Source of the DNA: Bdellovibrio sp.
Lineage (GTDB): Bacteria > Bdellovibrionota > Bdellovibrionia > Bdellovibrionales > Bdellovibrionaceae
Length of the DNA: 12,753 bases
Assembly: GCA_046318155.1 (NCBI GenBank)
Contig: JBKCUU010000093.1
Coordinates: 1 to 12,753 of the forward strand
Direction of reading: 5' to 3'
Positions 1-3,000 of the stretch are shown here, in pieces. Position numbers: made by a program. Each line of letters begins with the position of its first letter. Position 1 is the first letter of the stretch.

Positions 1-3000
1 AATTCGGTCAACAGCAGTTTGGCCCTCAACAGTTTGGTCCTGGCCCTTCACTTCCCGGCCAAGGTCAATTCCGTCAACAGCAATTTGGCCAGCAACAGGT
101 TCAGCAGCAACCCGCAAACTGCACGACTTATGCAACCAACCAAGCAAAGTCTTTGATGATCAACGAATTGCAATTCACGACGGGCCCTCAGTTGCGAAAC
201 GCTTTGCTTGAAGCCAACATTGATGGCGACAGCATGTCTTTACAACAGATGTACATGTCGACCTTTCACAATCCCTTGATGAACGTGTGGAATCAAAATT
301 CACAAAACGGAATCAACTGGTCGCAAGCTCAATTGACACCTGGCTTGCAAAATCCTGGACTTCAAACGCCTGGTTTGCAAAACCACGGCGGCCCCGTCCT
401 GCCCGGCACCTATGATGCTCGCAACAACGGGAGCCGCGGAACGCCTGGAATCCCCCAAGCTTTTGGTCAACCCAACCAATACGGAGCCCCTGGCGGCGTC
501 GGTCAACCCAACAATTACCGACCAAACCCACAGACCTTCCCACAAAACAACGGCTTCGCGGCCCCCACCAACAACGGTTTGCGTAGTCGCTTCTAATTAA
601 AAAAAGTCCTCCACGGACCCAAGGAAGGGCCCGGAAAACCAAAAAAGGCACCCCCAAAAAAGGGTGCCTTTTTTCTTTACAAAATCCCATGGTGCCCGCG
701 GTTCGCGGCTCACTCTTGAGTTTAGGCTTAGGAGTTTTCCTTCTGATAGAGACACGGCCCTCCAGGCCTCGCCGCCCCTGAATACCGCATCCTGCGGGGG
801 CGGAGGTCCCCATCAGAAGGAAAACTCCTAAGCCTAAACTCAAGAGTGATGCAAATCCGACTTCGAACGAAAAGCAGTTCCGGGATTTTAGAAATTCAAA
901 AATGATGGGCTTCCGGATCGACTCCGTTAAACTCCGACGTCTTTGAATGCGAGACGCTGATGATCCCGGTTTCCTCTCCTGAACTTCTCTTGAGTAAAAT
1001 GGGACCTCCGCCCCCGCAGGATGCGGTATTCAGGGGCGACGAGGCCTGGAAGGCCGAGTCCCATTTTACTCAAGAGAAGTTCAGGAGAGGAAACCCGGAT
1101 CCAGCGTCCCTCCGAAGGGTCCGGGATTCTCAAAGAAGAGACGAAAAAAATCCCGGGGTCTTGCGACCCCGGGCCCTGCTGACCGCCTCTTGGTGTGTCT
1201 AGCTGCAGATCAAGATGCGATTAAAATGAGATGGCGGCTTTGCTTTGAAATCCGTAAGTAAATCCTGCGTCCCGTCCCACAGAACCTTCTTTGAAGGCCG
1301 ATCCGGGAGAGAACAAACCAATTTCGTTGACCCATTGAACGCGCTCATAGGGGCGATAAACAAGAGCTGTGTCCCACTCAAATCCCAAATCTTTGCTGGT
1401 ATCGCTGTTGAGCACACGTGAAGGGTTTGTTTGAACTTGAGCGTAGGTGAGGGTGTTGCGCCAGTCGAGTTTATCACCAAAGCTGATCGTGAACCGAGGC
1501 GAGAAATAAACTGTGTTGCTGATCGCTTCTTCATCCAGAGCTTCTTCATTGGCGTAAGTCGGGCACGGAACAGTTGTGCAGCTTGCGTCACGATTGCGCT
1601 GAACACGCGAAGTCAGAACGTCATAGCCACCCATCGGGTGATTGAACATCATGAAGGCCACATCATAATTGCGATCCATTTGATAACCTTCGAAGTTATC
1701 GGTCGTCGGATTATCGCCGCTGACCAGGCCCGTTTTCACGAGCCATTTCCAATCTGTTTTTGGAAAATCAAGTTCGAGCGCGATGCCGTAACCATTGATT
1801 TTAATTTCTTGGCCGCCAGCGGTTTTGATACCCGTTGAACCGCTATCAAAACCTGCTTCCATACGAAATTTAAACGAGTCCCAACCACGCATCAGTGTAA
1901 TATTGGTGTGATTGGTCGACCAACCACTAGCTGCGAGTACTGAGGTGTAGGCGGGGTTCACGCCAGAATCAAAAACGTTGTAAGCATCATTCGAAGATTG
2001 CGAGGAGGTGCGTGTTCGGTAGAACAAACCAAAGACCGACTCGGTCTCGGCGTTGTTGTATTGGATATCAAACATAGTGTCGGTGACTTCTCGGCCTTGC
2101 GCTGGCGAGTAGTCGTAGGGCTTACCGATCATGGGCATGATCGAAAGATTTCCGATTAAAAATTTGTAACCGACAAGGTCCTGAATATCGCCCCAGTGAT
2201 CAAAGGCACCTTTGCCGGCGTTGTAACTCATGCCCAAACCAAACTGAAGCGGCGCGCGGCCGACCAAAATCGACCCGTACTCTTGATTGAAGGTGGCGTA
2301 CAACTCACGCACTTGCAGGTTTGAGGAGCCTTGATTCTGCGAAGTGACGTTCGATGAGGTACCGTTCATGTTCGTCGCTGTTCCGGCATTGGCGCCCGAA
2401 CCAAACTGCTGACCCACTTGGGAGTTGGGGTAGTTGGCGTTGCCTAGAACTTCAAAGTTCGCGACGACATGAACACCGTCGGCGGCGATAATCTTGGGCG
2501 AGAGGTTCAAATGGCTGAGCAAGTAAGACTTACGACCGCCGCCCGCACTTAAATTTGTTTTGTCGATTTCGGTGTATTCAAACCGGTACGTTCCGGACCA
2601 ATCAACGGCCATTGCCATCGCGGTTTGAGTCAAAAACAAGGACATTCCAAGAAGAGAAAGCTGCTTTTTCATAGGCCTCATTCAAGCATGCGGATTCTGA
2701 AAAAGACAACTCTAAAAATTTATGTTTCAACAATTCCGAGAATGTCGCTCTCTCGCACCACGATGAGGTCTTGGCCAGCCCACGTAATTTTCGAACCCGC
2801 ATGGGCAGCGAACAGAACTTCGTCGCCGACTTGCAGCTCGATCGGATGGATTTTTCCTTTTTTATCGAGATGTCCACGTCCCACGGCAAGAACTTTTGCC
2901 TTGAGATTGCCCGAAAGCTCAGCAGAGTCCGGAATATGAAGACCGCCCGCTGTCATTTTAGGTGCTTCGATGGGCACCAGAACGACGCGATCATCAAGGG

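Follow-up and report, generated by a model that had tools for sequence, protein, structure and literature searches.

The genome of Bdellovibrio sp. GCA_046318155.1 carries, near the start of contig JBKCUU010000093.1, two long palindromes lying in inverted orientation between two genes. This locus raises the question of what these palindromes are, which of their strands folds, and whether that strand acts as RNA, acts as single-stranded DNA or merely spreads. Positions 1-12,753 of the contig were analysed, and this whole stretch of 12,753 nt is called the window. The element is a real, repeated and strand-specific folded structure, present in two copies in the window and nine in the genome, with a head that is under selection, a layout of multiple copies and divergent pairs, and gain and loss at orthologous sites.

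Genomes and models compared

The samples comprised 151 Bdellovibrionaceae genomes (41 genera) and 141 genomes from other families of the phylum. Analysis labels are used for genomes (G000 for the genome under study, G020, G077 and so on for other sampled ones), for genera (g3, g7, g10) and for loci (L043, L192 and so on). The covariance model R1 was built here from the nine G000 copies, and 109 of its matches, from 94 sources and fitted to the model, form the alignment A3. A rebuilt model, R2, adds variants with an extra hairpin. An initial annotation of this DNA had reported 44 of 150 genomes and 68 copies, figures that came from another model and of which the counts given here are independent. 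The folding strand of the element, opposite to the one given in that annotation, is called the GGA strand.

Two copies in the window and their surroundings

Both window copies were recovered as first described, with 44-nt arms that are 95% and 98% complementary around a 52-nt core (Table 1). The cores are inverted to each other and 95% alike over 60 nt, and both copies are slightly more stable when folded on the GGA strand, whether as RNA or as DNA. The extra triloop hairpin seen in some variants is absent from both, while basal helices similar to the extension of copy 1 occur in relatives. A promoter scan of the spacer between the copies gave no sigma-70-like promoter. The hairpin behind the left gene is absent from the list of the terminator scan. 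A Pfam search with the two flanking ORFs returned zero matches; the right one has a signal-peptide-like start and a terminal Phe, and its product may be an outer-membrane barrel.

Table 1. Features of the two copies and their neighbourhood in the window
Feature	Positions	Strand	Basis or remark
Left flanking ORF, Q/N/P-rich, open at contig start	3..596	+	Head-on to copy 1 GGA strand
Terminator-like hairpin 3' of left gene, A/T runs on both sides	641..674	.	Read from sequence
Copy 1, basal extension	699..706	-	Predicted from the fold to pair with 851-859 past an internal loop
Copy 1, whole	710..849	- (GGA strand)	Repeat searches, covariance model, strand analysis
Copy 1, 3' arm	710..753	-	Arm complementarity
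Copy 1, head	754..805	-	Three-way junction: bulged hairpin and short hairpin
Copy 1, head loops	789-793; 760-764	-	Bulged-hairpin loop AGGAT; short-hairpin loop TGGAG
Copy 1, 5' arm of 44-bp stem	806..849	-	95% complementary; two non-Watson-Crick pairs, G.T on this strand
Spacer of divergent doublet	850..961	.	Copy midpoints 252 nt apart
Copy 2, whole	961..1102	+ (GGA strand)	Repeat searches, covariance model
Copy 2, 5' arm	962..1005	+	98% complementary
Copy 2, head	1006..1057	+	Loops AGGAT 1018-1022 and TGGAA 1047-1051
Copy 2, 3' arm	1058..1101	+	Basal helix goes on: 953-959 with 1102-1108
Terminator-like hairpin 3' of right gene	1152..1173	-	Terminator scan
Right flanking ORF, 486 aa	1221..2681	-	Head-on to copy 2 GGA strand

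Over the whole of G000 the places listed initially were found again: blastn gave ten matches, nhmmer nine of these and R1 the same ten, with nothing beyond those places at E up to 1. Two of the ten, C82:6153-6272 and C3:28-143, had been taken for the same copy. They do overlap at a contig join, but 11 of 145 bases differ, so that the identity is likely rather than exact, and they are probably one copy with poor contig ends.

Fold, strand and sequence

On the GGA strand, a stem of 36-45 bp leads up to a three-way junction whose two loops read N(G/C)GAN. The strong covariation claimed earlier is also seen in A3, where 97.6% of 3671 cells are paired, against 60.0% after shuffling and 38-47% when partners are slid, and where 32 of 34 pairs have changes on both sides. 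Wobble pairs are few, as had been stated (42 of 3671 cells). The strand had been given wrongly, as it is the reverse complement that folds: G.T exceeds A.C there by 42 to 9 over the 109 copies (33:9 when counted once per genus and column), and RF01731, the TwoAYGGAY model, matches two G000 copies on that strand only, with 36.8 and 29.3 bits. Over whole stems the ratio is 81:23, and 142:89 with a looser gapped extension. With the strand reversed, the copy pairs are divergent.

The junction bases are nearly invariant among the 109 copies (T23 in 108, A67 in 108, G83 in 109); A67 lies opposite G83, and the second pair is G.A in just nine. GGA is found in 68 first loops and 93 second loops, in both loops of 60 copies, in at least one of 101 and in neither of 8. 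In the 41 first loops without it, the usual substitute is ACGA. Five-letter loops of the AGGAY, ACGAY and YGGAN types dominate, and full six-letter loops are a minority. The stem has an ungapped median of 38 bp, with many at 36. In its 5' arm, pyrimidines make up 91-96% at a distance of 14-15 bases from the head, and purines about 70% at 23-29. Stems had been described as copy-specific, and the arms indeed differ among copies, but their length has a mode near 36 bp and their composition follows position. Many stems run past an internal loop into further basal helices or junctions. Self-folding of single arms is weak (median z -0.3), and neither a scan nor inspection by eye revealed a conserved promoter 5' of the copies.

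Relation to TwoAYGGAY and other known repeats

The element had been called undescribed, which is too strong, given that it agrees with the published TwoAYGGAY (RF01731, clan CL00106) in its stem and junction, its loops, its copy number and its divergent doublets. It is probably a Bdellovibrionaceae lineage of TwoAYGGAY-type repeats. Both kinds have two hairpins in succession on a basal stem that is long and little conserved, occur in many copies, and form divergent doublets with a spacing of about 250 nt (252 nt in the window). They also share GGA loops (in both positions in 60 of 109 copies here), with the short AGGAY and ACGAY forms among the variants, and a second hairpin that has YGA-G...C-G at its foot. 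In the same way, the 2010 seed alignment has, in the accessible part of PMC2864571, the same short loops, a UGA-GG...CC-GA second-hairpin foot and divergent pairs. On the other hand, the RF01731 alignment skips the loops here, which are mostly of 5 nt, and the bulged hairpin comes first. The basal stem is near-perfect here and interrupted in TwoAYGGAY, the tandem G.A seems to be cut to one invariant A.G, and an optional extra triloop hairpin and a second head, described below, set the element apart. In none of the 151 genomes is the gathering cut-off of 43 bits exceeded (scores 29-40, best 40.2). With TwoAYGGAY-like features, yet scores below the cut-off and skipped loops, the element is like TwoAYGGAY and probably descends with it, and is not a formal member of the family.

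A 2026 preprint on TwoAYGGAY (10.64898/2026.09.22.753630) describes, in its accessible text, two hairpins on a common basal stem, wide variation in copy number, doublets of which 68% are divergent with a median of 249 bp, and an elongated stem in Bacillota. The extended Pseudomonadota form is given there three extra hairpins, a 3' pseudoknot and 5' GMTBT repeats. Some variants found here have extra hairpins and basal junctions, and the supplement of that preprint may already include some of them. The accessible text leaves the choice between a Csr/Rsm sponge and a mobile element unresolved and does not mention Bdellovibrio. CsrA binding had been proposed for TwoAYGGAY in PMC4333381, where, as far as the accessible part goes, the outer stem is unconserved. 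A literature search of openly available papers found no account of the element in Bdellovibrio. TwoAYGGAY has been known since 2010, and the functions put forward for it are proposals.

Other multi-copy families share some of these features. REPs and REPINs with their RAYTs are likewise extragenic palindromes behind gene ends that form inverted pairs, but the arms differ among copies here and a RAYT link is missing. The constant terminal inverted repeats of a MITE are not found, as arms differ, nor is a target-site duplication at the empty sites compared. The Csr/Rsm sponge RNAs CsrB, RsmY and RsmZ carry GGA in hairpin loops as the element does, whereas here there are only two loops, one often ACGA, in many dispersed copies that give no Rfam match to those RNAs. 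Reverse-complemented Bacillaceae-1 (RF01690) was, according to the accessible part of PMC4333381, also multi-copy, first described on the wrong strand and provided with two CsrA-like loops; the element here has no Rfam match to RF01690, and the helix order differs in the seed rows compared. Rfam scans returned only microRNA models, on the long stem, and sub-threshold TwoAYGGAY. A hammerhead or other ribozyme was also considered and dropped, there being no such Rfam match and no catalytic motifs.

Distribution and genomic placement

R1 matches 59 of the 151 Bdellovibrionaceae genomes and also 3 of 141 from other families, so that the restriction to Bdellovibrionaceae claimed initially does not hold. 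With R2, 74 of 151 family genomes in 26 of 41 genera are matched; all 32 g10 genomes are among them and none of the 33 from g3. The copies, with all candidates scored, number from 1 to 27 per genome and are patchy over the genera. An exact pattern was matched by 53 stretches among 185,579 species genomes, every one of them bearing Bdellovibrio, Pseudobdellovibrionaceae or Bdellovibrionales in its title, and the same pattern had 0 matches in viral contigs.

All 11 independent close pairs (within about 500 nt) are divergent; among wider pairs, one is tandem at 770 nt and one convergent at 1.5 kb. Copies stand 10-120 nt 3' of stop codons, often those of highly expressed genes (rplL, groEL, rpoD, fusA). 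In 85 of 121 cases the downstream neighbour faces the element, where about 40% would be expected; this count includes non-independent orthologues and excludes 20 of 141 copies without a call. There is also more room upstream of copies than downstream. A shared neighbour gene was sought and rejected, the flanking-ORF clusters consisting only of orthologous housekeeping sites and repeat artefacts.

Replication polarity was followed in several genomes. In the complete genome G020, which begins at dnaA with the expected skew and has 57 of 99 sampled genes leading, the GGA strand is the leading-strand template in 22 of 25 copies, and in 13 of 13 of those between convergent genes. With the origin taken as position 1, as for every genome except G020, G077 and G111 agree, with 7 of 8 and 6 of 7 copies. 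In G097 the polarity is reversed (2 of 9), and G115, G135 and G141 together give 36 of 61 when unpaired copies are counted. Fork polarity is not general across genomes.

Gain, loss and evolution of the stem

Genomes of g10 have one element, two or none at the site 3' of the rplL terminator. Mobility had been inferred initially from one empty site and a patchy distribution. Clean insertion is not supported by five aligned empty sites, which point to imprecise loss or turnover of the whole spacer: either part of the element is lost, with half an arm remaining in G117, or the whole spacer is, and none of the five has a target duplication. A 9-nt direct repeat at L045 was examined as such a duplication and discarded, as it is missing at the paralogue L043 and at empty sites. 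Near-identical paralogues occur at unrelated sites in G013, G077 and G020. Paralogues have the head and proximal arm in common and differ further out. Copies at orthologous sites (rplL, groEL) are kept across species with conserved heads.

For orthologous stems, 32 of 43 tree edges were kept (stem difference below 35%, more than 50 fourfold sites); the edges had been picked for the smallest stem distance, a choice that biases the stem rate downwards. Among 1127 pairs, 129 changed on both sides and 56 switched between Watson-Crick and other pairs. Transitions make up 46% of the double changes and 41% of those at fourfold sites of flanking genes, which differ at 13.8%. Stepwise compensation in RNA via G.U would favour transitions, while the neutral-like spectrum observed is what copying from arm to arm predicts. 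Some stems evolve far more slowly, with 0 of 35 pairs changed where fourfold sites reach 0.44, so that selection acts too and not copying alone.

A second head

At the rplL site of G113 and G091, the basal frame is retained and a long perfect stem bears another head, bounded by GACAGTCCTCGC and CTGYGGAACT. This second head is found at the rplL place in G069, G085 and G107 as well, in a different frame. At L192 and L097 it is paired with a GGA element on the opposite strand, in G030 it encloses the GGA element, and its inner hairpin has a C-G-closed triloop. Three contig sets and one raw-read run were compared with L192; the contigs span the whole regions, and the raw run gave 0 reads.

By a strict pattern, 34 of the 151 family genomes have the second head, and 34 of 34 also have the GGA element; 28 of them belong to g10, and among the remaining six are, of the nine g7 genomes, the same two that carry the GGA element. 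Both heads are missing from all 33 g3 genomes. Outside the family the second head is widespread, with more than 122 stretches across several phyla, and it has zero Rfam match. Flavo-1 (RF01705) was rejected as its identity, with nothing over the cut-off in five genomes and differing seed rows, and so was a relationship to repeat family 2 of G000, which has a resemblance of about ten bases and constant arms. The second head is an undescribed, cross-phylum structure that can take the place of the GGA head, pair with it or nest around it. Since every second-head genome carries the first head and g3 lacks both, the two heads may be interchangeable and served by a shared factor.

RNA or single-stranded DNA

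The reading that we tentatively adopt is that of a strand-specific single-stranded DNA structure bound by a putative factor. One defined single strand, most likely DNA, would be the functional form, and the long stem would be a spacer of set length that extrudes when the GGA strand is unpaired and presents a rigid head, the three-way junction and its two N(G/C)GAN loops, for recognition by a putative protein. A mutation in one arm would be copied to the other by template switching or hairpin mismatch repair, which would yield near-perfect, copy-specific arms, and new copies would be copied from existing ones. DNA is preferred over RNA on account of about 1% wobble, C-G-closed triloop caps, uncompensated ACGA loops and the lack of a conserved promoter. 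As to the caps, 17 of 25 G020 copies have a short extra hairpin that always ends in a C-G-closed triloop (GAA 10, AAA 4, GTA 2, AAC 1), and six others have a longer one with mostly four-base loops. Like triloops occur in most of 15 other variants. For comparison, 65 terminator-like hairpins from G000 include 5 triloops. A GNA triloop is particularly stable when the strand is DNA, and mini-hairpins of this type occur in single-stranded DNA priming signals (PMC13037366, accessible part).

Several observations weigh against single-stranded DNA. A candidate partner protein was not found among Y1 transposases or reverse transcriptases, at least one GGA loop, the CsrA motif, is kept in 101 of 109 copies, and the polarity of G020 (22/25) is not general (2/9 in G097, 36/61 unpaired). 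The two window copies, moreover, lack the extra triloop hairpin. The support for a shared factor comes mostly from one genus (28 of 34 co-occurring genomes), and the slow stems argue for selection beside copying. RNA would account just as well for the excess of G.T over A.C, and according to the accessible part of PMC5737381 motifs of RNA and of single-stranded DNA are hard to separate by computation.

A somewhat doubtful alternative is that the copies are CsrA-binding small RNAs, the GGA strand being transcribed towards the end of the neighbouring gene to give two GGA loops for a CsrA dimer on a nuclease-resistant stem. The frequency of GGA (in the second loop of 93 and the first loop of 68 of the 109 copies) is consistent with it, as are the facing downstream neighbours (85/121) and the room upstream. 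In G000, csrA lies between a flgL-like gene and fliW. CsrA binding has been proposed for TwoAYGGAY and for reverse-complemented Bacillaceae-1 (accessible parts of PMC4333381 and 10.64898/2026.09.22.753630), and in B. subtilis a leader that contains GGA is repressed by the CsrA of B. bacteriovorus (PMC13443453, accessible part). The gene csrA is present in 145 of 151 family genomes, and being near universal it is uninformative as a co-occurring partner; 32 of the 33 element-free g3 genomes have it. ACGA loops are common and uncompensated, the 8 copies in which neither loop has GGA comparing with about 6 expected if loops varied independently. There is no promoter or own terminator pattern, the caps are triloops, and a second head without GGA takes the same places. 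That the element is instead a parasitic miniature mobile element of REPIN or MITE kind, mobilised by a transposase in trans with the head as recognition site and without host use, is improbable. It would account for the 1-27 patchy copies, the near-identical paralogues (G013, G077, G020) and the REP-like position behind gene ends, and a mobile-like expansion has been suggested for TwoAYGGAY (10.64898/2026.09.22.753630, accessible text). Against it stand the five empty sites without precise ends or target duplication, the absence from viral contigs and the persistence of copies with conserved heads at orthologous rplL and groEL sites. Nor does a Y1 transposase or RAYT track the element, as had been noted initially for RAYT: a Y1 transposase gene is present in 134 of 151 genomes, including 30 of the 33 element-free g3 genomes, and absent from the 25-copy G020. 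The element never lies within 1.5 kb of 31 Y1 loci, and the G000 RAYT is flanked by a different repeat family. A reverse transcriptase was rejected as partner as well (48 of 151 genomes; absent from G000 and G020). Finally, a cis-acting mRNA 3'-end element (stabiliser, RNase III site or read-through barrier), transcribed from the strand initially given, would suit copies 10-120 nt behind the stop codons of often strongly expressed genes. It is the least probable of these explanations, as copies usually lie past an intrinsic terminator, and both the wobble bias and the folding energy, which is lower there, single out the strand opposite the mRNA.

The single-stranded DNA reading can be carried further, to a version that we think unlikely, in which TwoAYGGAY-type elements would be one head of modular, cross-phylum single-stranded DNA signals, used by a shared host factor to re-prime or restart replication in the manner of chromosomal ssi signals, or copied by it. 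Such signals would have self-correcting stems of 36-45 bp, opposite-strand pairs behind gene ends and interchangeable heads, one of them the second head, found from Bdellovibrio to Myxococcota, Planctomycetota and Coriobacteriia. The ssiA and ssiB sites of RSF1010 form a pair on opposite strands, like the element pairs. A C(GAA)G mini-hairpin also lies in ssiA (PMC13037366, accessible part). The likeness to single-strand initiation signals, such as RSF1010 ssiA/ssiB and the phage G4 origin, is one of resemblance only, as the element is chromosomal and multi-copy, has a long stem and comes with no cognate primase found. If the single-stranded DNA reading is true, a family that Rfam places in its Csr/Rsm clan would need a new classification, and a DNA signal of wide occurrence, with its putative reader, would come to light. 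If the RNA reading is true, the element would be a CsrA antagonist RNA in the FliW-type system of a predator. The element lineage described here is compact and is present in 32 of 32 sampled genomes of g10, a genus with culturable, tractable members.

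Other repeats and Y1 transposases

A second conserved head, different from that of the GGA element (the stem-and-head repeat of this window), is also carried by long stems whose sequence differs from copy to copy. Multiple copies were found in Bdellovibrio, Myxococcota, Planctomycetota and Coriobacteriia as well as in other groups, and Rfam gave no match to this head. In one compared genome (G020, loci L371-L394), a TTCGAAG-like word was observed in direct orientation at both ends of the extended GGA element. The two words may form a basal helix, or they may mark a recombination core.

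The source genome (G000) also contains about 18 copies of a repeat of ~180 nt, in which a central palindrome lies between constant terminal inverted arms. It is MITE- or REPIN-like, and no transposase was linked to it. Inverted repeats were likewise observed on both sides of the RAYT-like gene of this genome, and this flanking repeat recurs elsewhere as REPIN-like doublets. In genus g10, a relative of it was found near the GGA element at the rplL site. Y1 transposase genes have expanded to 10 to 27 per genome in G109, G123, G135, G141, G029 and G093, at positions unrelated to the GGA element.

Other genes

The small g10 ORF, kept in four genomes of the genus, immediately adjoins a GGA element and has a very Tyr-rich C-terminus. 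In the window, a long Lys/Ala-rich, histone-like N-terminal stretch lies in frame ahead of the GroES domain. The C-terminal part of the radical SAM protein is Cys-rich and, by eye, SPASM-like, and its gene lies next to the ferredoxin-like gene and to long intergenic stretches.

Location of the additional repeats and genes
Feature	Location	Strand	Remark
Second head	L151, L156, L168-L170, L192:1140-1300, L097:240-380, L193-L314		
~180-nt repeat, G000	C1:8873-9053, C23:8932-9110, C41:15144		further contigs C22, C31, C49, C50, C57, C60, C61, C66, C67, C79, C111, C128
RAYT-like Y1 transposase	L007:1353-2130 (G000 C86)		
RAYT-flanking repeat, G000	C5, C9, C47, C108, C128		contigs in addition to C86
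Small ORF	L187:1064-1462		secreted-looking
GroES (Cpn10) domain protein	window 2720-3325	(-)	
Small ferredoxin-like gene	window 8709-8996	(-)	adjoins radical SAM gene
Radical SAM protein	window 9242-10567	(+)
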